Below, piece by piece: positions 8,642 to 30,230 of a stretch of 64,000 nucleotides of DNA (positions are counted from its first letter, which is position 1; each line of letters begins with the position of its first letter). This DNA is from a virus, in the IMG/VR virus record IMGVR_UViG_3300009082_000002, positions 43,407 through 107,406 of that record. One strand, written 5' to 3'. The notes beneath the pieces are model-generated. The model made no database searches. It worked only from the letters and a program-made list of their open reading frames with translations, and was not told the DNA's origin. Both the position numbers and the translations under genes were made by a program.

Positions 8642-8881
8642 ATGGCAAAGCGCACCAACCTGATCTGGAAGGGCCGTGGCAGCAAGCTCACCAGCGTGGC
8701 CGCCCTGGTTACCTTCCGCGGCACGCGGTACGAGGTCAAGAAAATCCTGCGCTCCAACGGGCGCGAGGAGATTATCTATTCGGAGCTGACTCCGGCCGGG
8801 ATCTGCCAGCTGAAGCTGGCCAGCGTTCCGGCTGCTCTTTACTGGAAGCGGGATCTCGTCGCCCGCTGCTCACTCGGTTAG
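8642..8881 (+). CDS. hypothetical early protein
   Basis: GGGAGaaaaaaATG, similar to the repeat RBS. Confidence 0.6.
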   Translation: MAKRTNLIWKGRGSKLTSVAALVTFRGTRYEVKKILRSNGREEIIYSELTPAGICQLKLASVPAALYWKRDLVARCSLG

Positions 8882-14693: not shown

Positions 14694-14714
14694 CGCGCGC
14701 CTCGGGGGGTGTCG

Positions 14715-16163
14715 ATGGCCAGTGCGTCAGCTAAAGCGATCCGTGTCGACGAGAAGGAAGAGCTCGTCCGCGCCTTTGGCGAGTATGAGGCCATCTCCAA
14801 TGAGACCCTACGACGCGAGATTCTGCTCAACAGCCGATTCGACCTGCTCGCGGAATACGTGCTTGGCATCGAGCTGGAGCAAGTCCACCGTGAGCTGATC
14901 GCATACGCGCTCGAACACCCGGAGTCTCTGCACCTTGCCTTCCGTGGTTGCGGGAAGACGACTTCCTTCGTCTGCGTGTACATTGTCGGCCGCTTGCTTC
15001 AGAACCCGGAGCTTTGTATCCTGATCGCATCGCGCGCCGGACAGTACGCCAAGGCGATCTTGAAAGAGGTCAAGGGCCACCTAGTCAGCGAGCGGCTGGT
15101 CAGGATCTTCGGCGAGCAGATTGGCGAGAAGTGGGAAGAGACCGAGATCGTCGTCGGGCGAAAGAAGCGAAATACGAAGGAAGCCTCGGTCACGGCGCTC
15201 GGCGCCGAGGGCTCGATGACCGGTCGGCACTTCGACATCATCTTCTTCGACGATGGCGTGGACTTGGCGAACAGCCGCACGCGTGGCCAGCGCGAGAAGA
15301 TCAAGGAATTCTACTACACGACTCTCGACCCGTGCCTGAAGCCGGGTGGAGAGCGCAAGGTCGTCGGCACACGCTACCATCCGCACGACCTCTATGGCTG
15401 GCTCTCCGCTCACGAGTACAAAGGTTGTGCGCAGATCCTTCCGGCCCTGCACGAGGTCCGCGATGGCGGCGGATCGGTCACATACTACTCCAGCGCGCCA
15501 AAGCGCTTCACAGTCGAGTACCTCCTGGGCAAGCGATCCACGATCCCGACCTTCTCGTGGGTCACGCAGTTCCAGTGCACGGCGGAGCGGTTCCAGGGCA
15601 AGGTCTTCAAGCCGGAGTACTTCGAGGCCGAGGGCTTCTTCTTCACCGGCCCATTGCCGACCGGCCCTCTCTTCCAGTCCGTCGACCCTGCCGTGACCGA
15701 GGACACAAAGAATGACTACTTCGCCCACATGACTGGCGTCGCTGATCACGAGGGCCACGTATGGGTCGACGTCTTCCACAACATCCGTATCGAGTTTCCG
15801 AAGCAATCGCAGTTTTGCCACGATGAATTTGAGGCGCGCGATCCGGTGCGACTTGGTATCGAGAGCAACGCATACCAGAAGGCGCTCGGCCAGCAAATTG
15901 TCGCCGACTACCCGGACCTCAAGGGCAAGGTGATCGGCGTTCCGACCGACAAGGACAAGATGACTCGGGCCCTGAAGTTGACAGCCTATTTTGAGGCGGG
16001 CAGAATCCACTTCAGACCGGAGCACAAGGAACTCGTCGAGCAACTGCTGGAGTTCCCGGACGGAGAACACGATGATCTTTTCGACGCCCTGTATCTGCTA
16101 GTCTTGCTCGGGACGCGGATGCGGGTGAAGAAGAAGCGGCGCAAAGAGCCGGGCGTCCTTTGA
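14715..16163 (+). CDS. terL: terminase large subunit
   Basis: Walker A FRGCGKT, Walker B IIFFDD, GTRYH, nuclease SVDPA, IESN, FPDGEHDDLFDA. Confidence 0.95.
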   Translation: MASASAKAIRVDEKEELVRAFGEYEAISNETLRREILLNSRFDLLAEYVLGIELEQVHRELIAYALEHPESLHLAFRGCGKTTSFVCVYIVGRLLQNPELCILIASRAGQYAKAILKEVKGHLVSERLVRIFGEQIGEKWEETEIVVGRKKRNTKEASVTALGAEGSMTGRHFDIIFFDDGVDLANSRTRGQREKIKEFYYTTLDPCLKPGGERKVVGTRYHPHDLYGWLSAHEYKGCAQILPALHEVRDGGGSVTYYSSAPKRFTVEYLLGKRSTIPTFSWVTQFQCTAERFQGKVFKPEYFEAEGFFFTGPLPTGPLFQSVDPAVTEDTKNDYFAHMTGVADHEGHVWVDVFHNIRIEFPKQSQFCHDEFEARDPVRLGIESNAYQKALGQQIVADYPDLKGKVIGVPTDKDKMTRALKLTAYFEAGRIHFRPEHKELVEQLLEFPDGEHDDLFDALYLLVLLGTRMRVKKKRRKEPGVL

Positions 16164-16174
16164 AGGGAGCAGGC

Positions 16175-18001
16175 ATGGCAGATCAGAAGGTGGTGAGGAT
16201 GCGACGGCGCCCGGTCGTGGGCTCCGCGAAGTCTTCTCCCAGCGACGCAGTCGAGAGCGGTGCAGTTCACATCGTGGACCACGCGTCTCGAGCTGTCGTC
16301 AAGGCGCTGGTGATCGAGGCCGACGCGGAGAAGGTGCCGGTGCCGACGTCCCAGGTCATGCCCGACGATCCCTTTCAGTCGCTCCTCGACAACCGTCAGA
16401 TCCTCGCGCCGCCACTCGACCCGCGGCTGCTCGCGTCGCTGTGGGAGTACAACTCCCACCTCGGCCCGTGCATCGCGACGATGATGGTCAACTGCGAGAG
16501 CTTCGGCTATCAGTTCGAGCCTCGCATCCGCGTCAACGAGGACACGTCGAAGGCGGTGCGCCAGCGCATCGAAGAGGAGCGCCTCATCCTCGACAACTTC
16601 TTCGGCAACTGCGTGATCGAGGGCGACGACAGCTTCACCGGTCTACGGATGCGGAAGCGGCAAGACGAGGAGGCCATCGGCTTCGCGGCGTGGGAGGTCA
16701 TCGAGGTCAACGGCGACCTTCTCGGCTTCAACTACATGCCAGCTCATACCGTCCGGCTGACGGGGCTCGACGAAAAGCGGGTCCGTATCGGGCGCAAGCT
16801 CCTCGTCCGCGGGGCCAGCGGTGTCTTCTCCTACGTCGAGCGACCGGTCTGGCGGCGGTTCCGCAAGTTCGTCCAGGTGCGCGGGACCAAGATGAGGTGG
16901 TTCAAGGAGTACGGCGACCCGCGCATGATGAACGCGGACTCTGGCGAGTACGTCGACGACCCCGCCAAGCTCCCGGTTCACAAGCGGGCCAACTCCGTCC
17001 TCTTCTTCGCGCTGCCCGCGCCGCGCACGCCATACGGCATCCCGCGCTACATCGGCAATCTTCTCGGGGTCTACGGCTCGCGCGCGACCGACGAGATCAA
17101 CTTCTTCACCTTCGAGAGCAACAACGTGCCGTCGATGGTCGTGATGGTCAGCAACGGGATGCTGACCGAGGGCTCGGTGGATCGGATTCAGAAGTTCGTT
17201 GAAGCGCAGGCCAACGGCCAGCGGAACTACAGCCGCTTTCTCATCCTCGAAGCGGAGACCGACAGCGAAGGTCTCGGCGACCCGGGCCGCGTCGCGCTCC
17301 ATATCGAGCCGCTCACGAATCAGCAGCGGACCGACGCTCTCTTCACCGAGTACAAGAAGCAGTGCAAGTCCGATGTGCGTCAGAGCTTTCGCATCCCGGA
17401 CCTTTTCTTCGGCGAAGCCTCATCGTCTGCCGGAGGCGCGGTCGGCGCGATGGAGATCATGAGAAAGCTCACGGATGAACAGGTCTTCATGCCGGAGCGC
17501 AACGCCTTCGACGACCGCATCAACAAGCTCATCATTCCGGCGCTGGGCGTGGTCTATCTGAAGTTCAAGAGCAACACGCCGGAGACGACGGACAACAAGG
17601 ATCTCATCCGCATTCTCGCAATGGCCGAGAAGTCCGGTGGCGTCACCCCACGGATCGCTCGCGAGGTACTCAACCGCGTGGTCGGGCAGAACCTCGGCGA
17701 CGTCACGGATATCGAGCCCGACGTCCCCTTCTCGCTCCAGGTCGCGGAAGCTGCACGCAGTCAAGGCGATCCGCGCACAGCGCTCTCCGTGCCCGGTACC
17801 AACTCGCTCCGCAGGATGGGCGCGACGACCCGCGCCGAGCTAGGGCTGGAGTCCACGGCCAAGGCGGAGGACGGCGACGAACCGTGGGAAGGCGAGGCCG
17901 TCATCGCAAGCCTCGGCTTGCTCCACAACAAGATCGCCGAGGAGCAAGCTCGCCGCGCTGGCAAGATGGTCAAGCGCGAGCGGCCGAAGCCCGTCGAGTA
18001 G
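16175..18001 (+). CDS. portal protein (PBSX-like)
   Basis: Directly after TerL; YGIPRYIG, FESNNVP, VRQSFRIP pattern. Confidence 0.9.
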   Translation: MADQKVVRMRRRPVVGSAKSSPSDAVESGAVHIVDHASRAVVKALVIEADAEKVPVPTSQVMPDDPFQSLLDNRQILAPPLDPRLLASLWEYNSHLGPCIATMMVNCESFGYQFEPRIRVNEDTSKAVRQRIEEERLILDNFFGNCVIEGDDSFTGLRMRKRQDEEAIGFAAWEVIEVNGDLLGFNYMPAHTVRLTGLDEKRVRIGRKLLVRGASGVFSYVERPVWRRFRKFVQVRGTKMRWFKEYGDPRMMNADSGEYVDDPAKLPVHKRANSVLFFALPAPRTPYGIPRYIGNLLGVYGSRATDEINFFTFESNNVPSMVVMVSNGMLTEGSVDRIQKFVEAQANGQRNYSRFLILEAETDSEGLGDPGRVALHIEPLTNQQRTDALFTEYKKQCKSDVRQSFRIPDLFFGEASSSAGGAVGAMEIMRKLTDEQVFMPERNAFDDRINKLIIPALGVVYLKFKSNTPETTDNKDLIRILAMAEKSGGVTPRIAREVLNRVVGQNLGDVTDIEPDVPFSLQVAEAARSQGDPRTALSVPGTNSLRRMGATTRAELGLESTAKAEDGDEPWEGEAVIASLGLLHNKIAEEQARRAGKMVKRERPKPVE

Positions 18002-18010
18002 GATCGAAGG

Positions 18011-21000
18011 ATGATCCTCGCAGCGCGCAAGCTAGGTCCGATGGATGCCATCTTCCGGTCGATGACCGACGAGCAACTTGCGACCGCGAAGGCGGTCGCT
18101 CGCGAAGCTCTCCAGTGGTCGGGCGTACTCAAGGCGGCAGATGTCTATCTCGGCGTCGACGAGGATCTCTCCGCGACGCTCCTGCACAAGTGGGATGCCA
18201 AAGCGAAGGAGCAGATTGACAAAGGCGCCAAGGTGCTTGCGAAGGCGCAGAAGGGCGAGGTTGTCCAGTCCACGCTGAAGGGTACGTTGTGGAAGCTCGG
18301 CAAGGTGATGGGCGAGGAGTATGGCGAGGCCGTGTTGCCCGACTTCATCCGCGCGACGCTACTGACCTGGAGTCTGGCAAGCAAGGAAACGATGGGCCGA
18401 CTTCAGCTCAAGTGGTCAACCGAACTTGTCGACCAGAACGCCGCAGCTCGGCTTTCCAAGTTCCACACCTATTGGGTCGGAAAGCACTACGAAACTAGCA
18501 TTGCGAATTCGCTCCAGATCGCCACGCGGCAGACCATCATCGAAGGCGGACTTGCTGGCACGCAGGCAGCCAACGCCTTCCGCGACATCGCCTCGAAGTA
18601 CTTGGCCGGCAAGGGCGAGTCCTTCCCCGAGGTTCCGAAGGGCTGGACTGGCACGACGGACGAGTACTTTGCTGGGCTCGCGAATCACGTCGGCACACAG
18701 GCCCGCGTCTTCAGCCGACTCGAATCCTACGAGCGCGTCGGGATCACGACCTACACCATCGTCGCCGTCCTCGACAACCGGACGAGCGATATTTGCCAGA
18801 TGATGCACGGGCAGACATTCACGGTCGAGCAAGGTCTCGGCGTCGCGGAGACCTGGACGGAGGAGTACACTCCAGAGGCAGTCAAGGAGAAGGCCGGCTG
18901 GATGCGCGCGCAGGACGCAGCCAAGCTCGCCGGGCTGTCGGACTACAAGCCCGGCACGGTCTCACCAAAGATCAGCCCGAAGGGAATGGACGCACTGGCC
19001 GAGGCTGGCATGGCGCTTCCGCCGTACCACTTCCGCTGCCGGACAGACATCGTCGCGGAGCAGGAGGTCATGACCTTCCCGAGCGGCGGCGAGCCGACTT
19101 ACAAGCCGGTGAAGCCGCCGAAGGCCGAATCGCCGAAGCCGCCGCCGGCCGCGCCTACGCCGCCATCCAAGGCGACGGGCGGATTCCCGTGGCAGATGTC
19201 CCAGCTCACGTCGGTTGAGAAGTCCGCGAAGGGAATGCACGCCAAAGCCTTCTTCCACGACCCGGACGGCAACGAGTGGATGTTCAAGCCCGCGCCGGAG
19301 GGGCTGCGTTTTCGTGCAGAGGTCGAGAAGCTGGCTGCCGATGCGGCGCGCGCGCTCGAAGTCGACACGGCCGACGTCTTCATGGTTGAGCACGAAGGAA
19401 AGATCGGGACGATTCAACGCCTCTTCAAAGACATCAAGCACGACGGGCTCACCAAGGTCGGCGTCCAGGGCTTGACGCAGGAGCAGGTCGCACAGCTCCA
19501 GCGCCAGCACATTTTTGACTGGCTCATCGGGAACAACGACGGCCACATCGACAACTTCCTCGTCTTGAAGGACGGCAAGCTCGTCGGCATCGACCGAGGG
19601 CAGGCCTTCCGCTATTTCAAGACAGACAAACTCGCGCTCGACTACAACCCCAATGCGCGCTATGGGATCAAGGTCTTCTACAACGACGTCTTCGCAGCGG
19701 CACGCGACGGCAAGTTGCCGACTGGCGTAGAGATGCTCGGGCTCGACGCGCCGGAGATTGCCAGTCTGGTTAAGAAGGCCGAGTCGCTGTCCGACGAGCA
19801 GTGGCTTACGATCTGGCGGCCGTACATCGACGGCGCGATGAAGAACAAGAGCCTCGCCTACGGCTCGCGCGCCGCCTTTGAACGCGAGCTACTTCGACGG
19901 AAGAACCAGCTAGGGAGTGATCTCGACGAGTTCTATCGCGGCCTCCTCGGAAAAGGACGCGCGGCGCGTCGGACAGCGGAGACGCAGAAGGGTGTCCTGA
20001 CTCCGGTTGACAAGTCCTTCGTGAGTGAGATGCAAGCCGCGAAGAACCGCGGCAAGTCCGTGCTCGTCGCGTCGGAAGAGATCGAAAACGGCAACGTCCT
20101 CGTCTACACCTACGCGGACGGGACGGTCGTGGTCGAAGGCAAGATGCGGAAGCTCGCCGACGAGATGGTGCGGGCGCAGCTTGCTGGCCCGCAGGCTGCG
20201 GGCGCAACGCCGGGGACCGACTCGCTGTGGGACGACGTGCTCTCCTGCATCAAGTCTTTCAATCACCATCTCGGGCCAGGCGGCAGCGGTACGATCCCGG
20301 ACAGCAAGCAACGTCTTTTCGTGCGGACGCTCAACGCGGCAAAAAAACAATGGGCCGAAGGCTGGACCGTACCGGGCGGGACGCAGGCTGGACAGATGGG
20401 TGAATACTACGTCAAGCTCCTCCAGCAGTATGGGACCGAGTCGCTCGGGATGCGGCTGACCACAACGACAAAGAAAATGCTCGGCGTCAAGAACCAGCCG
20501 TTCAAGGTGCCAGGCGTGAAGGCCAAGGCACTCGCTGGTCGCGTGAAGCGGTCGAGCATCGAGAGAATCTACGAGGAGGAGCGCAAGCTGGTCCGCGGAG
20601 TGATCAAGAACAAGCACGGCGAGATTGCGAGTCAGTCCACCTTCGGATGCGGAATGGATGAGACCAAAGAGATGATTGTGGCTGTGCTCGATGACGGCAC
20701 GGAGATCCACTACATCCCACACAACGGATATAGGCAGGGCCAGGCGTACTCGAAGCAAGGCCGCTTCAGGATTAAGGTGCAACCGGCTACCGGCGCGAAG
20801 GACGTCACGCCGAAGCAAGTCCAGAAGGCACTTGACGCCATCGGTGATCTCGGCGTCTCGCCGAAGCTGATGACCGAGGCCGACTTCGAGTTGCTCTACT
20901 TGCAGAAAAACCAGTTCGCGATGGGCTACGCGAACGATGCGGCTTTCGCCAACATCCCGGCCAACGGCTCAACCGAGGAAAAAATCCAGGCGTACCTCGA

Positions 21001-21661
21001 CGCCTTCAGAAAGAAGCTGCGGAAAAATCCGCGTTCGCTGCCCGGCTACGATCCGCGGCCGGTCTACTACAGCGGGGACAACGCGGGCATTCCGCGTTTC
21101 CGGCGTTTCGACATTGACCGGAAGAAGCTAGCAGAGGCGGACCTTGAATTCACACACAGAGTTCAAGGGGGCGCGGATGAAGTGCTTCTTTCGATCATCG
21201 ACGGAGAGTCTGGCGGCTTGATCTCGACGGAGGAGAAGCTCCGTCGCGGAGTTGAAATCAGCGGGATGAGCCCTGGCGAGGACCAGATGACCGGCGGTGC
21301 GCAATACGTTTTCGCGCGGGCGAAGGGGATTGGCCGGGAGCGCAACTGGAACATGATCATCTTTAAGAAGGAACTGGCACTCGACACGAACATGGTCTCC
21401 TATTCGACAGACAAATTCGGGTGTATGGAGCCAGGCAGGAAGGAAGCGACTCGCGCGAAGACGTTTCAGAAGTTGATGGGTTTCCGCAAATTCGACGCTA
21501 ATGAGTCGCTCATCAAAAACGAGATTCCGCTGGACATGTGGGAGCACGTCATCGTCAGGCGGTCCACGCGGGTCAAGCTACTCGATGAACTCGAAAAGCG
21601 TGGCGTGAAGACACTTGGCGGGAAGCCCGTCGAGGAGTTCGTGATCGGGCTCGGGAGGTGA
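18011..21661 (+). CDS. MuF (SPP1 gp7-like) minor head protein fused to a HipA/PI3-4K-like kinase and a C-terminal ART-like domain
   Basis: MuF: AVLDNRTSDICQMMHG, PPYHFRCRT; Pro-rich linker; kinase: WMFKP, DWLIGNNDGHIDNF, GIDRGQAF; C-terminal H..GLIST..YVF pattern (weaker call). Confidence 0.8.
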   Translation: MILAARKLGPMDAIFRSMTDEQLATAKAVAREALQWSGVLKAADVYLGVDEDLSATLLHKWDAKAKEQIDKGAKVLAKAQKGEVVQSTLKGTLWKLGKVMGEEYGEAVLPDFIRATLLTWSLASKETMGRLQLKWSTELVDQNAAARLSKFHTYWVGKHYETSIANSLQIATRQTIIEGGLAGTQAANAFRDIASKYLAGKGESFPEVPKGWTGTTDEYFAGLANHVGTQARVFSRLESYERVGITTYTIVAVLDNRTSDICQMMHGQTFTVEQGLGVAETWTEEYTPEAVKEKAGWMRAQDAAKLAGLSDYKPGTVSPKISPKGMDALAEAGMALPPYHFRCRTDIVAEQEVMTFPSGGEPTYKPVKPPKAESPKPPPAAPTPPSKATGGFPWQMSQLTSVEKSAKGMHAKAFFHDPDGNEWMFKPAPEGLRFRAEVEKLAADAARALEVDTADVFMVEHEGKIGTIQRLFKDIKHDGLTKVGVQGLTQEQVAQLQRQHIFDWLIGNNDGHIDNFLVLKDGKLVGIDRGQAFRYFKTDKLALDYNPNARYGIKVFYNDVFAAARDGKLPTGVEMLGLDAPEIASLVKKAESLSDEQWLTIWRPYIDGAMKNKSLAYGSRAAFERELLRRKNQLGSDLDEFYRGLLGKGRAARRTAETQKGVLTPVDKSFVSEMQAAKNRGKSVLVASEEIENGNVLVYTYADGTVVVEGKMRKLADEMVRAQLAGPQAAGATPGTDSLWDDVLSCIKSFNHHLGPGGSGTIPDSKQRLFVRTLNAAKKQWAEGWTVPGGTQAGQMGEYYVKLLQQYGTESLGMRLTTTTKKMLGVKNQPFKVPGVKAKALAGRVKRSSIERIYEEERKLVRGVIKNKHGEIASQSTFGCGMDETKEMIVAVLDDGTEIHYIPHNGYRQGQAYSKQGRFRIKVQPATGAKDVTPKQVQKALDAIGDLGVSPKLMTEADFELLYLQKNQFAMGYANDAAFANIPANGSTEEKIQAYLDAFRKKLRKNPRSLPGYDPRPVYYSGDNAGIPRFRRFDIDRKKLAEADLEFTHRVQGGADEVLLSIIDGESGGLISTEEKLRRGVEISGMSPGEDQMTGGAQYVFARAKGIGRERNWNMIIFKKELALDTNMVSYSTDKFGCMEPGRKEATRAKTFQKLMGFRKFDANESLIKNEIPLDMWEHVIVRRSTRVKLLDELEKRGVKTLGGKPVEEFVIGLGR

Positions 21662-22458: not shown

Positions 22459-22632
22459 ATGAGCAGAGATCCGCTTGTTGAGATCGAGCAGCGCTACCGC
22501 GCGAAGAGGCTCTCCGCTCTCGGCCTCGCCAGCATCATCAGACGAGCCTGCGACACCTTTGAGGCATCCGAGCGACTGCGCAAGCGTTGGTCCGCACGCA
22601 AGGCCGTGATCGATCAGGAGGCCGGTCGATGA
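22459..22632 (+). CDS. small basic hypothetical protein (57 aa, not in the ORF track)
   Basis: GGAGG SD; MSRDPLVEIEQRYRAKR...; ATGA overlap with 22629. Confidence 0.45.
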   Translation: MSRDPLVEIEQRYRAKRLSALGLASIIRRACDTFEASERLRKRWSARKAVIDQEAGR

Positions 22633-25600
22633 AGATCAAGGACATCTCGCCGACTTCCTTGCGCGGAGTAAAGGACCAGGAGCTTCTCTCGCTCCACCTT
22701 CGGACTCATCAGCTTTACGGCGCGAACTTCGGGCCGGACGCCCCGCCAGAGCGCGGCTACCGCGACGACACGGGAGACACGGCCAAGGACGGCTTGAGGC
22801 TCGACGAGGAGACCGCGCGGAAGATCTGGCGCGGCGAGGTCAAGGCGGTCACCTTCTCCGACGACCCCGGTGACGTTGAGCGCGCTCTGTTCCTGCTGTC
22901 GCCCGGCTTCGCCTACGGCATCATCCGGCTTGACGAGACCGACACCGACGACCACAAGTACAAGGTCGACTACTTCCGCGCTTTCGAGGTGCCGCTCACA
23001 TTCAAGGGCACGGGCGACGGCCTGCTCGTGACGGGAGTCGAGATCACGTCGGAGGAGTCGCCGCTGTCGCTGGAAGACCTGGTCCACGCTCACCAGTTCA
23101 TCCTCGACGAGATGAACCGCCGGAAGATGCGCCACCAGTGGGCCTCGCAGCTCGACGACGAGACCAGCCCGGGCGAGGAGATTGAGAAGGCGACCGGACC
23201 TTTCAAGCGCTGGGGTGGGTCTGCCCAGTACGCAGCAAAAATCGCGAAGTACGTACCAGCGAACGCTGGCGCGTACATCGAGCCCTTCGCTGGTGCGGCC
23301 AGCGTGTTTTTCTCACTGACCGACACGCCGAGGAAGCGCGTGCTGGCCGACCTGGACCCGGAGCTAGTTCACGCCTTCAAGATGATCCAGGGCGCGGCGA
23401 AGAACGGGCTCATCAAGGCGCTCGAAAAAAAGGACCGTGTTGTCAGCGAAAAGCAGTGGCAGAAGTTGCGGCATCGGATTCCGAGCGGCGACGTCGAGCG
23501 CGTTCATCGGTTCCTGTACCTGCTCGGCGGATCGTGGTCCGGCGTGCGGAGTGGCGCGCGCCCGAACAAGAAACGAGTCGGTCAGATTTCCTACGATCCG
23601 AAGCGGCTGGAGAAGTTCATCAAGCCGTTGCAGGGCGTGACGCTCAAGAACCAGAACTGGCAGAAGACGCTGAAGGACAACGACGCGCCGGACGCCTTCT
23701 TCTTCATCGATCCGCCGTACCCGGGCGAGTGGGACAAGAACGCCGACGACACAGGCACGGACGGCAAGCAGTTCGACGTCGAGGCTCTTGTCGAGGCGAT
23801 GAAGGATCTGAAGGGTGGCTGGCTTCTCGTTCTTGGCGACACCAAGACCCAGACGGATGCGCTGGCGAAACTGGAGAAGGAAGCCGGCGCATCTCGCTTC
23901 AAGATCCAGTTGAGCGAGGCTGCGAGTTCTGGTGGGCACAAGGAAGCCTATCGGTACTTCGCGATGCGCCCGCTTCAGTCCCGCGTGCGGAAGGCCGACG
24001 ACGTTGGCGTGAGCCGCGACCAGGTACTCGACCTCATGGAAGAGGCCGGCAGCTTTGTGGTGGTACCGAGTTATGTGTCGCTCGTCGGCTCCGTCGTGAC
24101 CGGCGAGGATGACCAGTCGGCACACGACATTGATCTGCTTGTTCGCGATGACGAGATCGATTCCAAGGTCGGGCTCAAGCTGGACCGCCTCTTTCCCGCG
24201 TCGATGCGCGACAAGGTCCACTACATCCCCGACCCGCAGGGACCGAATTGGGATCACCTGCCGCTGTACGATCTGGTCCTGCGGAAGCGCAGCGCGCTGG
24301 AAGTGGTCGAGGTCGATGAACCGGAGTACCACCCCTTCCTGTCCGGCGATGTGCGCCGCTACGGCGAGCAAGTCGCGAAGGGGAAGTTCACCATCGTCCG
24401 TGGAATCTGGGGCTCGCCCGGCGGCAAGGCTTTTCTCGCAAAGCGCATCGCCACCGTCATCCCGCCTCACAAAATCTACGTCGAGCCGTTCGCTGGCGGT
24501 GGCGCGGTTCTCTTCGCGAAGCCGCCGGTCGAAAAGGAAGTCGTCAACGACCTCGACAGCGAGATCGCCTTCGCGTGGCGGTTCGTCAGCAAGGTCACGG
24601 ACGACCAGCTCGACGCGCTCCGCAAGATGAACTGGGTGGCGAGCGGCAAGCTGTTCGCCAAGCTGCGTGACATGAAGCCGCCGTCCGATCCGGTCGAGCG
24701 ATTTCATCGGTTCATGTACCTCTACCGCTGGAGCATCAACGGCAACCGCGAGAAGACGCACACGATGCCGCCGACCTACGAAGGGCTCCGGCAGCAGGCA
24801 GTCGAAGCGGTCGAGCGGTGTCGCGAGCGCGTGCATGGCCTCATCGTGCGGAGCGCCGACTACGAGAAGGTTATCGACGAGTTCGACAGCAAGGACACCT
24901 TCTTCTTCATCGATCCGCCGTACAAGCATTATGATGCCCAGCTCACCGAGGAGAAGAAGCAAGAGGACTTCGACGAGGAGCGATTCGTCGAGGTGCTGAA
25001 GAAAATCAAGGGCAAGTTCCTTGTGACCTACGGAATCCGCAGCGGCACGGATCTCTTCAAGGGCTTCACGGTCCAGCGGTGGCAGCACCGAGGTCGGCCC
25101 GGGCCGGCCGTGGGCGGCAAGTTCCAGAAGGTCACGACGCTCATGGTCTCAAACTATCCGCTGCCGCAGCGGACGCGCAAGGCGAAGGTGGGGCTCATGC
25201 AGCCCTTCACTCCGCTGAAGGCGAAGGGCGGGTACCATCAGGGCGAGTTCTTCGAGGCCGACCCGCTGTGGGATCTCTGGGCTGGCCCTGCGATCAAGGA
25301 CGGGAAGACCGTCGCCGTCGAAACCAAGTTCGACGGAATTCGGATGGTCATCCACAAGGAAGGCGACAACGTCGCGATCTACACCGAGGATAAGAAGCGC
25401 GACCGCGCGAGCATCCTTCCGGACTTGGCCGACGAGGTTCGCAAGCTGACAGTCGAGAACGTGATCCTTGACGCCGAGGTCGTCTGGTGGAAGGGCAGCA
25501 AGCCGCTGGCCCGTCACGACATGATGGCGCTCGTTGTCGGCAAGGACCCGATCAAGGGCGAGGATATCCGGGCCAACGTGTTCGACGTCCTGTGGTTCGG

Positions 25601-27917
25601 CGGCGAGGGCAGCCTGGCCGATGAGTCGTGGGAGGATCGCCAGTCGTACCTGCGCAAGGTTCTGCCGAAGGATGGGAAGCATCTCATTCGCGTGGTGCCG
25701 CGGCTGGTCAACAACCGGCGCGAGTTCGATGCCGCACTCAAGGCTGCGCGTCGAGCAGTCGGCAGCGAAGGCGCGATGCTGAAGCTCGCCAATGCGCCGT
25801 ACGATCTGGAAGGCCAGACTGGCGCGTGGGCCAAGCTCAAGGACGTGTACGAGATCAAGTGTGTCGTCATCGGTGTCCGCAAGAAGATCCCGAGCGAGCA
25901 GGAGGACCCCGGCTTCAAGAAGGACCCCTCGCGCTGGAACTACGCCGGTATCAAGGAGCCCAGCGCTTTCACCTACCGCTGCGCCGTCCGTGGTGAGGGT
26001 GGCAAGCTCATCCCCATCGAGGGCGAGCGGACGTACACCGGCTCGGATCTCAAGGTGCGGTGGGTCGAGAAGGGCCAGAAGGACCCGGTGACGGGTGAGA
26101 CCGCGAGCGAGAGCGAGTGGCGCGGTACCGACGATCCGAAGCTCTGGAAGATGGGGCTCGGCTTCAACAACCGCGACGTCGGCGACACCGAGTACGGCAC
26201 GACCTACGGCACCGGAGTCGAGGCGAAGATCGGTGACGTCATCACGGTCTCTCCGGTCTTGGTCCGAGAGTGGGTCGGGGACAGCGGCCGGCGTCACTAC
26301 TCGTGGACCTTCCCCATCGTGCGCGAATCCGACCCGACACGCGACGAGCCTGACCGCGTCGAAGACCTGCGGCGCATCGCAGCGGCGAGCCGGCAGCGCG
26401 CACCGGAGAAGATGCCGAGCGAGGAAGCCGTCGAAACCGCGGCGGTGTCGAAGTCCGTCGCGAGGATCGCCCACCTGCAGAAACAGCGGCGCGGCGACCT
26501 GGACCCCGACGAGACCAAGCTCAATCGCGAGGAGGAACGCGAACGGCAGGAGAAGATCACGGGCGACCCGTACATGGTCGAGCAGAAGGCCAAGGCCAAG
26601 GCACGGTTCGTCTTGCAACAACACTATCGCGGGTTCTGGTCGCCGGACGAGCGGAAGCAACTGCGAGACGGAATCACGCGGGCTCGCGAGCTGGCCGAGT
26701 CCGACAAGAAAGATGAGGCCAAGGATCTGCTCAAGGGTCTCTGGCAGGAGTACCAACCGCTCATGCTCAAGGCCAGCATCGCAGAGATCCGCGAGGCAGC
26801 CGAGGCCGCAGACAACGCAGGCGAAGGCGAGGTCAGTCCGGCGGTTGCGCGCCGTCTATCGGAAGCGGTGCCGATGTTCGATGAGCTCGAAGGGGTCGAA
26901 GATCGGATCGTCAACCGGGGCAACGTCCACACCGACCTTCGGATGGAGTCGCCGTCCGGCGACTGGCTGATCGGCTGGACGCTGGATACGCCGAAGCTGG
27001 CCCTGCAGACGCTCGACGGGAAGGCGCATGACCTCCTCCGGTCCTACGTGATTGACAACAAGCCGGACGACAACGCGCTCGCCCAGCGCAAGCTGGTCCA
27101 GCCCGAGAACTGGCTGGCCATCGTCAACGAGAAGAAGCCGATCTACCAGACCGCTCCGGGCGACGTCGGCTCAACGCGCGGCACCGCTGGCGAGTACCAC
27201 TACATTGACTCGGGCGTTGTGATCTTCGGCGTGCAGAAGTCCGACTATCACGAGTACTTCTTCTTCCCCGAGAAGCACAAGGGCTGGGCCGGTCGGTGGG
27301 GGCTGCAGCTCATCGAGGGGAGCCCGAGCTACGCCCGCGCGCCGAGCGAGTTCTGGATGGCCAACCGGCCGAAGGAAACGCAGACCCCCTACATCCAGAC
27401 GCACGACCTCGACGAGGAGGAGAAGAAGGCCAAGACCGACAAGATCGACCTCGTGTGGAACCCCGACACGGTCGAGGCACTGAAGGCGGTCGGGTACGAA
27501 TCGCTCGCCGACGTGTCGAAGTCCGCTGGCGGCGAGCTTGAACCGATCAGCGTCAACGTCCGAATCGTGAAGGCGGCGAAGGAGGAGCGGTACGTTCTCG
27601 GCGTTGTGATGAAACCGGATGACGTCGACGCCCACGGAGAGATTACCACGGCAGCCGAGATCAGGAAGGCTGCCCACAATTTTCTTGTCAATGGTCCGAA
27701 GATCGGCTATCAACATGAAGAGACACCTGGAGGTCTGATCTTGATCGAGAGCTTCCTGGCCCCCGCAGAGTTCAAGCTCGGTGGCGAGACGATCACTGTT
27801 GGCACCTGGCTCATCGCGGTTCGCGTGAACAACGACAAGGTGTGGAAGGCCGTCAAGGAAGGGAAGATCACCGGCTTCAGCATCGAAGGTTACGCAAAGA
27901 AAGTGCCGCTCGAATAG
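22629..27917 (+). CDS. prohead protease polyprotein: His-rich/ASCH-like + Dam MTase + nucleotidyltransferase-like + Dam MTase + ATP-dependent DNA ligase + LigD-PE-like + XkdF-type protease
   Basis: Two EPFAG..DPPY sets; LVGSVV..HDIDLLV; ligase ETKFDG, LDAEV, FDVL, EGAMLK, WAKLK; RFVLQQH..HTDLRME; protease DAHGE..GYQH..ESFLAP..TGFSIEG; AGGAGG SD. Confidence 0.85.
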   Translation: MKIKDISPTSLRGVKDQELLSLHLRTHQLYGANFGPDAPPERGYRDDTGDTAKDGLRLDEETARKIWRGEVKAVTFSDDPGDVERALFLLSPGFAYGIIRLDETDTDDHKYKVDYFRAFEVPLTFKGTGDGLLVTGVEITSEESPLSLEDLVHAHQFILDEMNRRKMRHQWASQLDDETSPGEEIEKATGPFKRWGGSAQYAAKIAKYVPANAGAYIEPFAGAASVFFSLTDTPRKRVLADLDPELVHAFKMIQGAAKNGLIKALEKKDRVVSEKQWQKLRHRIPSGDVERVHRFLYLLGGSWSGVRSGARPNKKRVGQISYDPKRLEKFIKPLQGVTLKNQNWQKTLKDNDAPDAFFFIDPPYPGEWDKNADDTGTDGKQFDVEALVEAMKDLKGGWLLVLGDTKTQTDALAKLEKEAGASRFKIQLSEAASSGGHKEAYRYFAMRPLQSRVRKADDVGVSRDQVLDLMEEAGSFVVVPSYVSLVGSVVTGEDDQSAHDIDLLVRDDEIDSKVGLKLDRLFPASMRDKVHYIPDPQGPNWDHLPLYDLVLRKRSALEVVEVDEPEYHPFLSGDVRRYGEQVAKGKFTIVRGIWGSPGGKAFLAKRIATVIPPHKIYVEPFAGGGAVLFAKPPVEKEVVNDLDSEIAFAWRFVSKVTDDQLDALRKMNWVASGKLFAKLRDMKPPSDPVERFHRFMYLYRWSINGNREKTHTMPPTYEGLRQQAVEAVERCRERVHGLIVRSADYEKVIDEFDSKDTFFFIDPPYKHYDAQLTEEKKQEDFDEERFVEVLKKIKGKFLVTYGIRSGTDLFKGFTVQRWQHRGRPGPAVGGKFQKVTTLMVSNYPLPQRTRKAKVGLMQPFTPLKAKGGYHQGEFFEADPLWDLWAGPAIKDGKTVAVETKFDGIRMVIHKEGDNVAIYTEDKKRDRASILPDLADEVRKLTVENVILDAEVVWWKGSKPLARHDMMALVVGKDPIKGEDIRANVFDVLWFGGEGSLADESWEDRQSYLRKVLPKDGKHLIRVVPRLVNNRREFDAALKAARRAVGSEGAMLKLANAPYDLEGQTGAWAKLKDVYEIKCVVIGVRKKIPSEQEDPGFKKDPSRWNYAGIKEPSAFTYRCAVRGEGGKLIPIEGERTYTGSDLKVRWVEKGQKDPVTGETASESEWRGTDDPKLWKMGLGFNNRDVGDTEYGTTYGTGVEAKIGDVITVSPVLVREWVGDSGRRHYSWTFPIVRESDPTRDEPDRVEDLRRIAAASRQRAPEKMPSEEAVETAAVSKSVARIAHLQKQRRGDLDPDETKLNREEERERQEKITGDPYMVEQKAKAKARFVLQQHYRGFWSPDERKQLRDGITRARELAESDKKDEAKDLLKGLWQEYQPLMLKASIAEIREAAEAADNAGEGEVSPAVARRLSEAVPMFDELEGVEDRIVNRGNVHTDLRMESPSGDWLIGWTLDTPKLALQTLDGKAHDLLRSYVIDNKPDDNALAQRKLVQPENWLAIVNEKKPIYQTAPGDVGSTRGTAGEYHYIDSGVVIFGVQKSDYHEYFFFPEKHKGWAGRWGLQLIEGSPSYARAPSEFWMANRPKETQTPYIQTHDLDEEEKKAKTDKIDLVWNPDTVEALKAVGYESLADVSKSAGGELEPISVNVRIVKAAKEERYVLGVVMKPDDVDAHGEITTAAEIRKAAHNFLVNGPKIGYQHEETPGGLILIESFLAPAEFKLGGETITVGTWLIAVRVNNDKVWKAVKEGKITGFSIEGYAKKVPLE

Positions 27918-27932
27918 CGGTCGGGATGGGCG

Positions 27933-28946
27933 ATGTCGAAGAAGGCCGAGCGCGAACTCAAGGACATCGTGGTCACGAATGTGGACCTTGTGGACCGCGC
28001 CGCGAACGAGGAACAATTCGCAGTCGTGAAACGGAAGGAGGGCCGAGGGATGGCCGACAAGACCAAGGTGAAGAAGGACGAAGAGACCGAGGAGGAGAAG
28101 GTGGCCGGCGAGGTGGCAGGCGCCGCCGAGACCGAGACCGACACGGAGGCCAGCACCGATGAAGGCGGCGACGACAAGAGCGCGGTCGCCAAGACGGCCG
28201 AGGCCGTCACGGGCCTGACCGCGCGGCTCGACTCGCTCCTCGACCACCTGGAGAAGAAGGGCAAGACCTCGAAGCAGGACGAGGACGAGGAGGACGTCAC
28301 GAAGGCGGACGGGATCAAGATGGCCAAGGACGCGCTCGCTGCGGCCCTCGTCGTCAAGAACCTGCCGGCCGACGCGAAGGCCAAGATCGAGTCGGCAATC
28401 GCCCTGCTCGACAAGATGAAGGCCAACGGCTACGGCTACCCGAAGCCGACCGAGGCCAAGAAGTCCGAGAGCGTCGTCGGCGACGCCGAGGCCGTGGCCA
28501 AGGCCGGTCGCATCCTGTCGAAGGCCAACCTCGGCAAGCTCCAGACCGCGGCCAAGGCCATGAACGACGCGACCGAGACGATCACATCCATGCTCAAGCA
28601 GGCGATGGGCACGACCGACGAGGAGGAGGACGAGGAGGCCAAGTCGAAGACGAAGAAGGCCAAGGCCAAGAAGCAGGACGACGAGGAGGACGAGACCGAC
28701 GTCGAGGCCAAGAAGGCCAAGGGCAAGAAGGCCGAGAAGGCCGAGGACGAGGACGAGGAGGTCAAGAAGTCGCTACTCGCGATCTCCGACAGCCTCACCA
28801 AGATCAGCAAGCGGCTCGACGACGCCGAGGCCGCCGTGGGGATCACCAAGTCCCTCGGCGACGGCGAGGATGCTCCCGAAGGCGAGACGGTCAAGAAGTC
28901 GCAAGGCGGCCTGTGGGCCGGACTCGGCCTGGTGCCGGGGCGCTAG
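27933..28946 (+). CDS. capsid scaffolding protein with N-terminal protease-like segment (internal start 28050)
   Basis: K/E/D/A-rich; between protease and MCP; repeated VxK[AS]; N-terminal RELKDIVVTNVDLVDRAAN. Confidence 0.75.
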   Translation: MSKKAERELKDIVVTNVDLVDRAANEEQFAVVKRKEGRGMADKTKVKKDEETEEEKVAGEVAGAAETETDTEASTDEGGDDKSAVAKTAEAVTGLTARLDSLLDHLEKKGKTSKQDEDEEDVTKADGIKMAKDALAAALVVKNLPADAKAKIESAIALLDKMKANGYGYPKPTEAKKSESVVGDAEAVAKAGRILSKANLGKLQTAAKAMNDATETITSMLKQAMGTTDEEEDEEAKSKTKKAKAKKQDDEEDETDVEAKKAKGKKAEKAEDEDEEVKKSLLAISDSLTKISKRLDDAEAAVGITKSLGDGEDAPEGETVKKSQGGLWAGLGLVPGR

Positions 28947-29021
28947 CAGCAAGGACAACCGACGCGTTGACCGCGTAGGAAGAACCGGGTGAAGGAACCC
29001 ACGAGAGAAGGAGGCAGGAAT

Positions 29022-30230
29022 ATGCCGGCAGTGACCAACAGAGAGGCGCTCAAGAAGGCGGTCATCACGACGGACTCGATCACGACCGCCGGGAAGCTCA
29101 ACCCCCTCCAGGCGGATCGGTTCATCGACTTCGTCTGGGACGTGACCAAGCTCAAGGGGCACGTGCGGACCGTCAAGTTCCGCAACGACGAGATGTACAT
29201 CGACAAGGTCGGGGTCGGCACTCGCGTCGCGGTGCCGAAGGTCGAGGCCGTGGACCCGGGTGTCCGGCGCGGCATCACGACCTCGCGCGTGACGCTGAAG
29301 CCGTCCGAGGTCATGTGCCCCTTCGAGATCAGCTACGAGATGCTCGACGAGAACCTGGAAGGCGAGGCCTTCGCCGAGCACCTGGTCAAGATGTTCGCCA
29401 CGCAGTTCGGCAACGACATGGAGGAGCTGTGCATCAACGGCGATGCGCTGGGCCCGGCAGTCCTCCAGTCCGAGTACGTGGCCGGCGGCAGCGCGACCAA
29501 GTACGTCAAGGACGCGTACCTCGCGCTTCACGACGGCTGGCTGACCCTCGCGCGGCAGGGGCACGGTGTCGACTTCGCCGGGGCCAACGTGAGCAACCGC
29601 CTCTTCAGCCGACTGATCAACGCCCTGCCCGAGAAGTTCAAGAAGGACCGGACCAAGCTCCGCTTCTTCTGCTCCACGGACTTCGAGCAGAACTACCGCG
29701 AGAAGGTGGCCGCCCGGGCGACCGGCAAGGGTGACGTGGCGCTGATGAGCGAGATGCCGCTGACGCCCTTCGGCGTGCCGCTCATCGCGGTGCCGCTGCT
29801 GCCCTTCCAGCCGAAGGTGGTCCAGCACATCGTCCTGACCGGCACCACGGCGACCGCGCTCCTCTTCAAGGATGTGACCAGCGTGGTCGTGACGACCTCG
29901 ACCCTGGACGCCACCCCCGAGGATGCGTACACCGAGGGCGCGGGTGGTGACTACGTGCTGGATGCGGTCAACGGCACCATCGCTCGGACCGCCGGCTCGA
30001 CCATCGGTTCCGGCGCGACCGTGAAGGTGACCTACAACGCCGAGGCCCAGGTCATCTGCACGCACGAGAGCAACTTCATCATGGCGCTCGGCCGTGACTC
30101 GATCCGGCTGGAGACGGACCGGGACATCTTCAAGTCCACGCTCCAGTACTCGCTGACCGCCAAGATCGACTGCGAGTTCGAAGAGGCCGATGCGATCAGC
30201 TTCGGCTACAACATCGGGCTCGACGTCTAG
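29022..30230 (+). CDS. major capsid protein (HK97 fold, XkdG-like) with inserted beta domain
   Basis: AGKLNPLQADRFID, LDENLEG, NDMEELCINGD, LPEKF; AAGGAGG SD; strong codon bias. Confidence 0.9.
   Translation: MPAVTNREALKKAVITTDSITTAGKLNPLQADRFIDFVWDVTKLKGHVRTVKFRNDEMYIDKVGVGTRVAVPKVEAVDPGVRRGITTSRVTLKPSEVMCPFEISYEMLDENLEGEAFAEHLVKMFATQFGNDMEELCINGDALGPAVLQSEYVAGGSATKYVKDAYLALHDGWLTLARQGHGVDFAGANVSNRLFSRLINALPEKFKKDRTKLRFFCSTDFEQNYREKVAARATGKGDVALMSEMPLTPFGVPLIAVPLLPFQPKVVQHIVLTGTTATALLFKDVTSVVVTTSTLDATPEDAYTEGAGGDYVLDAVNGTIARTAGSTIGSGATVKVTYNAEAQVICTHESNFIMALGRDSIRLETDRDIFKSTLQYSLTAKIDCEFEEADAISFGYNIGLDV

Follow-up and report, generated by a model that had tools for sequence, protein, structure and literature searches.

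The prohead protease of the virus recorded in IMG/VR as IMGVR_UViG_3300009082_000002 is, as far as the sequence tells, made only as the end of a long chain. It forms the C-terminus of a 1762-aa protein in which two predicted DNA adenine methyltransferases, an ATP-dependent DNA ligase and a LigD-type 3'-phosphoesterase fold (PE) come ahead of an XkdF-type protease domain. We analysed a window of 64,000 nucleotides (positions 43,407 to 107,406), which is the right-hand 64 kb of this 107,406-bp record; the record has direct terminal repeats and is 100% complete according to CheckV. The favoured reading, to which we give about an even chance, is that the 1762-aa product is a polyvalent head protein, in which a chain of DNA-acting enzymes lies ahead of a prohead protease that serves both as loading handle and as releasing enzyme.

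A single ORF in the prohead-protease slot

An earlier reading of the window (the original prediction) had described one uninterrupted ORF at the protease position, between MuF and scaffold/capsid, and both points hold. The frame is free of stops from 22587 to 27917 on the + strand, and its likely start, ATG 22629, gives the 1762-aa product (ORF list and translation). An AGGAGG ribosome site at 22616-22621 lies 7 nt 5' of this ATG, which overlaps as ATGA the TGA stop of an upstream 57-codon ORF (22459-22632) that has no family match; the overlap suggests that the two ORFs are probably translationally coupled. Profile matches and the synteny of relatives give the gene order TerL, portal, MuF, two small genes, the 1762-aa ORF, scaffold and capsid, and because of these flanks we assign the ORF to the prohead-protease slot. 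The seven domains originally listed for it fared unevenly: the two D12 methylases, the ligase, the LigD-type PE and the XkdF protease were recovered, while the nucleotidyltransferase-like (NTase-like) assignment is weak and an ASCH-like unit found no support.

The source is a single metagenomic contig, and a chimeric assembly or missed frameshifts could have joined separate genes. Such an artefact is next to impossible in our view. Every segment has in-frame family or fold matches, and dozens of long homologues follow the same logic. Moreover, an independent Logan assembly encodes P0002, a protein of 1761 aa that is 92% identical and has the same seven units in the same order, which makes a chimeric assembly unlikely.

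The C-terminal XkdF-type protease

The XkdF-type protease placed at the C-terminal tip by the original prediction is clearly recognised, and its domain corresponds to the last 118 aa of the protein (Table 1). PF14550 scores 103.9 bits on the protein, against a cut-off of 24, and 108 bits on the genome DNA. The predicted fold is nearest to T4 gp21 (5jbl; VIA Z 7.8, 108 residues aligned, 2.2 above the next match), and the protease of the herpesvirus VZV is found lower in the same fold search (Z 4.2); for these reasons the modelled domain is assemblin-like by fold. The candidate catalytic residues are D1667 (in VDAHG, 1666-1670), H1696 and S1751 (in GFS). In an alignment of 11 homologues D392, G395 and S476 are invariant and H421 is nearly so, with D392, H421 and S476 corresponding to D1667, H1696 and S1751, consistent with putative roles as the catalytic Ser/His/Asp.

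The domain presumably cleaves head proteins during maturation, as supported by its gene slot and by its being the sole candidate protease: the only PF14550 match in the complete genome is the 1762-aa ORF, and neither PF04586 (HK97-type S78) nor ClpP proteases gave a match there. Ahead of the protease domain we found no internal start codon led by a strong Shine-Dalgarno sequence, which speaks against a separately translated free protease. Judging from these searches and those described below, the 1762-aa ORF is the only recognisable source in this genome of a prohead protease, of DNA methylases and of an ATP ligase. The expected catalytic motifs of the methylases and ligase, and the candidate ones of the PE and protease, are all intact.

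Two D12-class DNA methyltransferases

MethyltransfD12 (PF02086) lies above its cut-off in two stretches of the 1762-aa protein (129 bits, Pfam), and the NCBIfam model TIGR00571 dam reaches 152 bits against a cut-off of 115. The first unit has motif I as PFAGAAS (aa 219-225) and DPPY at aa 361-364; the second has PFAGGGA (aa 620-626) and DPPY at aa 762-765, and the two are ~31-35% identical to each other. The profiles, together with motifs I and IV, confirm the prediction that both are D12-class N6-adenine methyltransferases, in keeping with the two Dam-type enzymes originally named. They are the only D12 methylase matches in the complete genome, where the N6_N4 and C5 methylase families had no match.

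The search for a clue to the methylase target in GATC avoidance gave none, GATC not being avoided genome-wide (785 sites, observed/expected 0.92). Several 6-bp palindromes are strongly avoided in the whole genome, namely GGATCC (0 vs 36.6 expected) and CTCGAG (7 vs 98), and further AAGCTT (3 vs 32.5 expected) and CGTACG (3 vs 23).

Ligase, phosphoesterase and the two less certain units

The ATP-dependent ligase of the original prediction is well founded. Its adenylation domain spans aa 892-1071 (DNA_ligase_A_M, 78 bits, above the Pfam cut-off) and contains motifs I (K900-F-D-G, 900-903), III (LDAE, 947-950), IV (EGAMLK, 1047-1052) and V (WAKLK, 1067-1071). Sequence matches in PDB are archaeal and viral DNA ligases, and PF01068 matches the complete genome only in this ORF. 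The ~200 aa that follow the adenylation domain have OB-like terminal strands by eye, with no match to PF04679, and probably form an OB domain with inserts.

The PE unit was likewise borne out, by its predicted fold and not by Pfam, in which no family matched, LigD_N included. PE and protease were modelled together by AF2 from an 11-sequence alignment (pLDDT 76). The top five Foldseek matches of the PE model are all LigD 3'-phosphoesterases, and VIA-align superposes it on 3p4h with Z 9.8 (rmsd 1.9, 117/118 residues) and on the Pseudomonas LigD-PE 3n9b with Z 8.4 (123/148 residues). Three motifs, candidates for the metal and phosphate ligands of LigD enzymes (His, His-x-Asp-x-Arg, later His/Tyr), are kept in 11 homologues: Q-Q-H (1330-1332), H-T-D-L-R (1434-1438) and QKSDYHE (1536-1542; QKxDxHE). 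A helical insert of ~95 aa separates the conserved QxH and HxDxR motifs. The model thus confirms aa 1276-1631 as a predicted LigD-type 3'-phosphoesterase by fold.

Between the two methyltransferases lies a unit that may be NTase-like of the Pol-beta type, an assignment that is weak. A G487-S followed by D498-x-D500 (GS-x11-DxD), plus a later Asp, is conserved in 11 homologues, which agrees with the NTase-like unit originally proposed; NTP_transf_2 (PF01909) reaches only a sub-threshold E of 0.07, and the unit used as a profile against PDB sequences gave no match. Its Atlas neighbours are ~140-aa viral proteins, some with PF01909, and serve as leads only.

The N-terminal unit, N1, had been described as His-rich and ASCH-like. 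This identity is not supported: no Pfam (E up to 10), PHROG or Atlas match was found, the AF2 model has a pLDDT of 56, too low for a fold search, and there are 6 His in 187 aa. The helical core of N1 (aa 1-35 plus 146-179) recurs beside the NTase-like unit in distant homologues.

Candidate cleavage sites in the linkers

The linkers between the units, set by fold ends and homology breakpoints, add up to 150 aa, or 8.5% of the chain. The pattern [IVLT]xK[ASG] occurs 15 times in the protein; six of these instances fall in linkers, one in each (6/6; binomial P about 1e-3), and in composition-preserving shuffles the motif appears in 5-17% per linker. Among homologous tails, 61 of 82 have a hydrophobic-x-K no more than 9 aa beyond the terminal N-[YF] that closes the methylase fold, against a background of 20%; stand-alone DpnM ends at this terminal N-Y, and 7m6b is without the Lys. 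The capsid protein has a conserved L-[KR]-K/A-V (the slash marks the candidate cut) twelve residues from its likely start, with I-Q-K/V in distant relatives. These observations are suggestive of hydrophobic-x-Lys in linkers as a cleavage code of the protease.

Exchange of enzymes in the protease slot

Among 5.8 billion proteins searched, 55 were long homologues of 976-2643 aa. They carry 0 to 4 methylase copies, and other cargo among them includes C5 and other methylases as well as RNA-ligase-like, DHH, 2H, NUDIX, metallo-beta-lactamase and InPase domains. The original prediction had raised the possibility that cargo varies between phages, and slot contents indeed differ, the fused cargo of relatives ranging from none (L031) to 2.5 kaa, i.e. 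2.5 thousand aa (L003). In L031, whose major capsid protein (MCP) is 52% identical to that of the window, the slot holds a bare ~200-aa protease. L029 and L030 (MCP 53%) have a 1584-aa chain of NTase-like unit, methylase, ligase, PE and protease. In L003 (MCP 76%) a stop-free frame of 2845 codons (P0003, 2643 aa) encodes N1 and next to it ~1.4 kaa in which C5 and other methylase families are found, ahead of an NTase-like unit, ligase, PE and protease.

In L002 (MCP 69%) and L004 (MCP 80%) N1 is a separate gene, and free 7-deazaguanine (preQ0) genes accompany a fused ORF within the head module (L002:6173-12739 and L004:7004-11437). The free pathway genes of L002 are a radical-SAM QueE-like gene, FolE, QueC and a YhhQ-type transporter, and its fused ORF contains a DpdA-like unit, an NTase-like unit, ligase, PE and protease. 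The DpdA-like unit, a predicted base exchanger (transglycosylase), is a relative of queuine tRNA-ribosyltransferase (phrog_887, E about 1e-12). L004 has QueD, a radical-SAM QueE-like gene and FolE, and a similar fused ORF with DpdA-like unit, NTase-like unit, PE and protease but without the ligase. In each of these 7-deazaguanine cases it is the DNA-touching enzyme that is joined to the protease, and the small molecule is made by free enzymes. No match to QueC was found in the complete genome of the window phage.

Because cargo differs between relatives that share the same head module, the protease slot is, by these domain assignments, a hot spot for DNA-modification chemistry, in which close relatives appear to exchange whole chemistries: adenine methylation, cytosine methylation and 7-deazaguanine. 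The enzyme module is also found without the protease (L005, L011, L012, L016) or partly split from it (L013). In L012 (L012:6864-12134), where the chain runs NTase-ligase-methylase-PE, the ligase is divided between two ORFs by one in-frame stop (8742-8744), which could reflect a pseudogene, a sequencing error or read-through. Bacterial and archaeal genomes gave only five weak loci, one of which is a 105.8-kb contig binned with a Myxococcales metagenome-assembled genome, and hence no host is assigned.

How widespread the C-terminal layout is

A full HMMER scan with the protease domain gave 6765 clusters at E <= 1e-3, and the layout was counted in the 149 nearest XkdF clusters. The protein ends within 20 aa of the protease in 136 of them; at least 200 aa lie ahead of it in 80, and at least 400 aa in 48. 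A C-terminal extension, likely scaffold, follows the protease in the 12 clusters that have one. Most N-terminal extensions match none of the domains of the window chain. Ten of them were sampled with Pfam and yielded one ligase, one InPase and one borderline Tad3. In the XkdF-terminal proteins P0068 (530 aa) and P0085 (872 aa), a match to the Thoeris inhibitor Tad3 is borderline, at 27.4 bits for a cut-off of 27, and an InPase domain is also present; by such matches anti-defence-type cargo appears to occur on the XkdF handle.

2H phosphoesterase cargo was found in P0025, P0033 and gp18 of the cultured Arthrobacter phage LiSara. LiSara gp18 (with gp17 at L028:4493-7408), labelled 'RNA ligase', consists of a 2H/LigT-like phosphoesterase and a C-terminal XkdF, and follows portal and MuF; gp17, labelled 'head maturation protease', is the MuF protein. 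LiSara is thus a cultured example of the class of cargo-XkdF fusions. Two further labelled proteins were considered as fusions and rejected: gp150 of Pseudomonas phage KIL1 (149 aa; L019:4929-5378) and a protein of Rhizobium phage RHph_TM16 (210 aa; L018:5989-6621), labelled 'DNA methyltransferase' or 'DNA methyltransferase/prohead protease', are both bare XkdF proteases. Their labels were probably transferred from fusion-containing families (phrog_1530). Short XkdF proteases labelled 'DNA methyltransferase' or 'RNA ligase' owing to these fusions should be read with this in mind.

Comparison with known systems

Polyvalent proteins were defined by Iyer, Burroughs, Anand, de Souza and Aravind (2017; PMC5512222), who predicted their transfer with the DNA. 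In one sentence on a subset, the same paper places assemblin-like peptidases always at the C-termini of these proteins and predicts processing during virion assembly. Polyvalent proteins hold 2-15 diverse domains in one polypeptide; the window protein, encoded by a complete viral genome, has seven units, and five of these are identified. As in phage-type members, many unrelated enzyme domains are joined in one polypeptide encoded beside portal, terminase and MuF genes, and the head-type, assemblin-like peptidase is C-terminal; InPase and 2H cargo are common to polyvalent proteins and to XkdF-terminal proteins elsewhere. Here, however, the phage has no other recognisable prohead protease than this peptidase, which occupies the canonical slot. 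The window protein is a variant of the layout predicted by Iyer et al. (2017); among the partners named in their text, XkdF, ATP-dependent DNA ligase, LigD-PE and DpdA are absent. In a 2021 paper by this group, XkdF figures as a candidate head peptidase without relationship to the SH superfamily. The original prediction knew of no characterised system of this architecture, which stands as regards experimental characterisation, of which we found none, but the layout itself had been predicted (PMC5512222). Literature on XkdF, DpdA-protease fusions and Arthrobacter phage virions held nothing on this layout.

The internal proteins and Alt of T4 are enzymes or anti-restriction proteins that are loaded in the prohead, trimmed by gp21, kept and injected. 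The resemblance lies in the XkdF fold, nearest to gp21, and in prohead loading, trimming and injection, which are known for T4 and presumed here. In T4, nevertheless, the cargo proteins are separate ones that bear a short N-terminal targeting peptide, and cleavage is after Glu, whereas the window cargo is covalently joined to the protease and its candidate sites follow Lys. The Dar system of P1 is comparable in that a virion-borne protein containing a DNA methylase (DarB) protects incoming DNA in cis against restriction; for the window protein virion carriage is presumed. Dar proteins differ in being separate head components with their own loading order, unfused to a protease, and in DarB the methylase is coupled to a SWI2/SNF2 ATPase.

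Bacterial LigD, a polymerase-phosphoesterase-ligase protein that works with Ku, likewise combines an ATP-dependent ligase with a 3'-phosphoesterase of this fold, and has a nucleotide-adding unit to which the NTase-like unit would correspond. In contrast, the NTase-like unit of the window protein would be minimal and Pol-beta-like, not an AEP primase-polymerase, and its PE has the 95-aa insert. Ku (PF02735) went unmatched across the complete genome, Pfam recognised no AEP domain, and the NCBIfam LigD equivalog models, at 60-64 bits, stay far below their cut-offs of 373-989. Without Ku and an AEP polymerase domain, the protein does not fall within the LigD/Ku system of non-homologous end joining (NHEJ).

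Lambda C/Nu3 and P2 gpO are protease-scaffold fusions in the same gene slot. As in the 12 of 149 XkdF clusters with a C-terminal extension, a prohead protease there shares its polypeptide with another head-internal function, but the partner is C-terminal and structural, whereas it is N-terminal and enzymatic in the window protein. In MuF-fused toxins and effectors (SPP1 gp7 family) a head-internal structural domain likewise carries variable effectors, as does the MuF protein of the window; the carrier domain is a different one, and the cargo is C-terminal of MuF.

Possible function and alternative explanations

Prohead proteases co-assemble with scaffold and capsid protein. If the 1762-aa protein is a polyvalent head protein, its C-terminal protease domain would do the same and bring one copy of every enzyme into the procapsid. 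Once activated, the protease would cut the chain after Lys in the hydrophobic-x-Lys linkers; the folded enzymes, too large to exit the shell, would stay in the head and be ejected with the DNA, and could then protect or mend the incoming genome ahead of phage gene expression. Progeny DNA would also be methylated, before or during packaging, by protein left unassembled in the producing cell, since the genome encodes no further methylase. This reading is supported by the recognised domains and motifs, the synteny of the head module, the lack of any other protease or of an internal start, the varying content of the slot in relatives, the C-terminal position of the protease in most of the nearest clusters, the linker motif, and the prediction of Iyer et al. 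(2017) taken with the gp21-like fold. Cargo elsewhere argues for it too, since InPase, 2H, NUDIX, DHH and borderline Tad3, all of kinds usual in injected polyvalent proteins, are found there.

Several points weigh against it. Encapsidation, cleavage and ejection are what we infer for every member, and among 50,697 records no cultured phage with a methyltransferase-protease fusion was found at >=80% coverage. The linker motif was defined after inspecting the sequence, and the homologous tails are non-independent. A passenger of 194 kDa per protease molecule would be a heavy load for the head. The module also exists without the protease or split from it (including N1 in L002 and L004), so that fusion seems dispensable for enzyme function. 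Being the only methylases of the genome, the two enzymes must act on progeny DNA before packaging, and the DpdA-like fusions of L002 and L004 depend on cytoplasmic preQ0 synthesis by co-expressed enzymes.

The last two points support the main rival explanation, which is possible though less probable than the favoured reading. Here the chain would act only in the producing cell, where it methylates and mends DNA once this has been replicated, shortly before packaging or in its course; fusion would give late, abundant and equimolar expression, perhaps with self-release, and the part entering heads would be degraded or lost, with nothing useful delivered. It fits the placement within the late head operon of what are the genome's sole DNA methylases and sole ATP ligase, the need of the sister phages' fused DpdA-like enzyme for preQ0 from free co-expressed FolE, QueC, QueD and QueE, and the modules found without or apart from the protease. 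GATC, at 785 sites and an observed/expected ratio of 0.92, is not avoided, so full self-methylation would matter. Left unexplained, however, are the placement of the protease at the very end of the protein in 136 of the 149 clusters, the fusion of DNA-acting enzymes only, with small-molecule enzymes free, and the anti-defence-type cargo domains. Prohead proteases are also generally kept inactive until assembled (HK97, T4), which argues against release in the cytoplasm. The two explanations are compatible, as free protein is expected to methylate progeny DNA regardless of the fraction that is assembled. A broader proposal is that the protease domain is a general handle loading exchangeable DNA-acting enzymes, which modify or mend the genome in the shell, during packaging or at ejection, and not in the cytoplasm. 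In-shell modification would explain why DNA-touching enzymes only are fused and cofactor-making enzymes left free, yet we consider the proposal unlikely.

Modification during packaging itself is very unlikely and the least supported reading. Procapsid-loaded enzymes would act on DNA as it is threaded in or still loosely packed, with S-adenosylmethionine (SAM) or preQ0 diffusing through the shell and the ligase pre-adenylated. It is favoured indirectly by the tying of DNA-touching enzymes (methylases, DpdA-like, ligase, PE, NTase), and not of cofactor makers, to a procapsid-bound domain; but the density of packaged DNA leaves no room for base flipping, turnover seems too slow for ~1600 methyl transfers per genome within one packaging run, and we know of no precedent. 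Under any of these delivery models the ligase-PE-NTase set might act on RNA instead of DNA, repairing for example tRNAs after cleavage by host anticodon nucleases, a possibility that we find doubtful. A weak RNA_ligase similarity (E 0.07), PF09414 in the homologue P0010, the inclusion of the XkdF part in phrog_14859 'RNA ligase' and the 2H phosphoesterase cargo of P0025, P0033 and LiSara gp18 point to RNA. Against this, the ligase matches best to ATP-dependent DNA ligases and LigD-type NHEJ models, the chain has no recognised polynucleotide 5'-kinase, and the set occurs joined to DNA methylases and to a DpdA-like enzyme of DNA. DNA is therefore favoured as the predicted target.

If the favoured reading of a polyvalent head protein is true, phages hold a simple modular means to pre-load their heads with swappable enzymes of DNA protection and repair. 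This would add a widespread, for now predicted, route of anti-restriction, would explain thousands of giant 'protease' genes in metagenomes, and would offer a natural tag for loading HK97-fold shells.

Gene neighbourhood

Coordinates of the features are given in Table 1. The MuF protein contains a HipA_C/PI3_PI4-kinase-like stretch at aa ~488-534, followed by ~650 aa of unassigned sequence. Its length varies from 354 to 1265 aa across phages that share the head module, and it appears to be a second variable cargo carrier among the head proteins.

Table 1. Features of the 1762-aa ORF and its neighbours, in window positions (slash, candidate cut)
Feature	Residues (aa)	Position	Strand	Basis
TerL (large terminase), upstream context		14709-16163		
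Portal, upstream context		16160-18001		
MuF head protein, 1216 aa, with HipA/PI3K-like kinase stretch		18011..21661	+	TIGR01641/Phage_Mu_F and HipA_C matches
Complete 1762-aa protein, putative polyvalent head protein		22629..27917 (incl. stop codon)	+	ORF translation, ribosome-binding site, homologue P0002
N1, unit of no assigned family	1-187	22629..23189	+	Two conserved helices (aa ~16-32, 148-164) around a beta-rich insert
Candidate site I-E-K187/A		23187..23189	+	[IVLT]xK[ASG] in linker
D12 (Dam-class) N6-adenine DNA methyltransferase 1, predicted	188-455	23190..23993	+	PF02086, TIGR00571; PDB 2dpm DpnM E 5.5e-10
Candidate site K455/A		23991-23993	+	
Minimal Pol-beta-type nucleotidyltransferase-like unit (weak)	456-584	23994..24380	+	GS-x11-DxD motif, sub-threshold profile
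Candidate site K584/G		24378-24380	+	
D12 N6-adenine DNA methyltransferase 2, predicted	585-851	24381..25181	+	Pfam best stretch aa 597-817; PDB 7m6b E 2e-16
Candidate site K851/A		25179-25181	+	
ATP-dependent DNA ligase, predicted	852-1275	25182..26453	+	PF01068 78-81 bits; PDB ligases, e.g. 3gde E 2e-16
Candidate site K1275/S		26451-26453	+	
LigD-type 3'-phosphoesterase fold (PE), predicted	1276-1631	26454..27521	+	AF2 model mc9aa919a39f9, Foldseek, VIA
Candidate site K1631/S		27519-27521	+	
XkdF-type (Peptidase_S78_2) prohead protease, predicted	1645-1758	27561..27902	+	PF14550; phrog_3017 head maturation protease
Scaffold-like protein, 337 aa, Lys/Glu/Ala-rich		27933..28946	+	Position, composition
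Major capsid protein, likely start ATG 29022		28989..30230	+	phrog_1623 E 4e-73; N-terminal alignment

Homologues of the scaffold-like protein are found in the same position in L002-L004, L007, L008, L015 and L030. The C-terminal part of the major capsid protein (aa ~289-355) resembles Ig-like domains of tail tube proteins (phrog_807; NF052337, E 8e-6).

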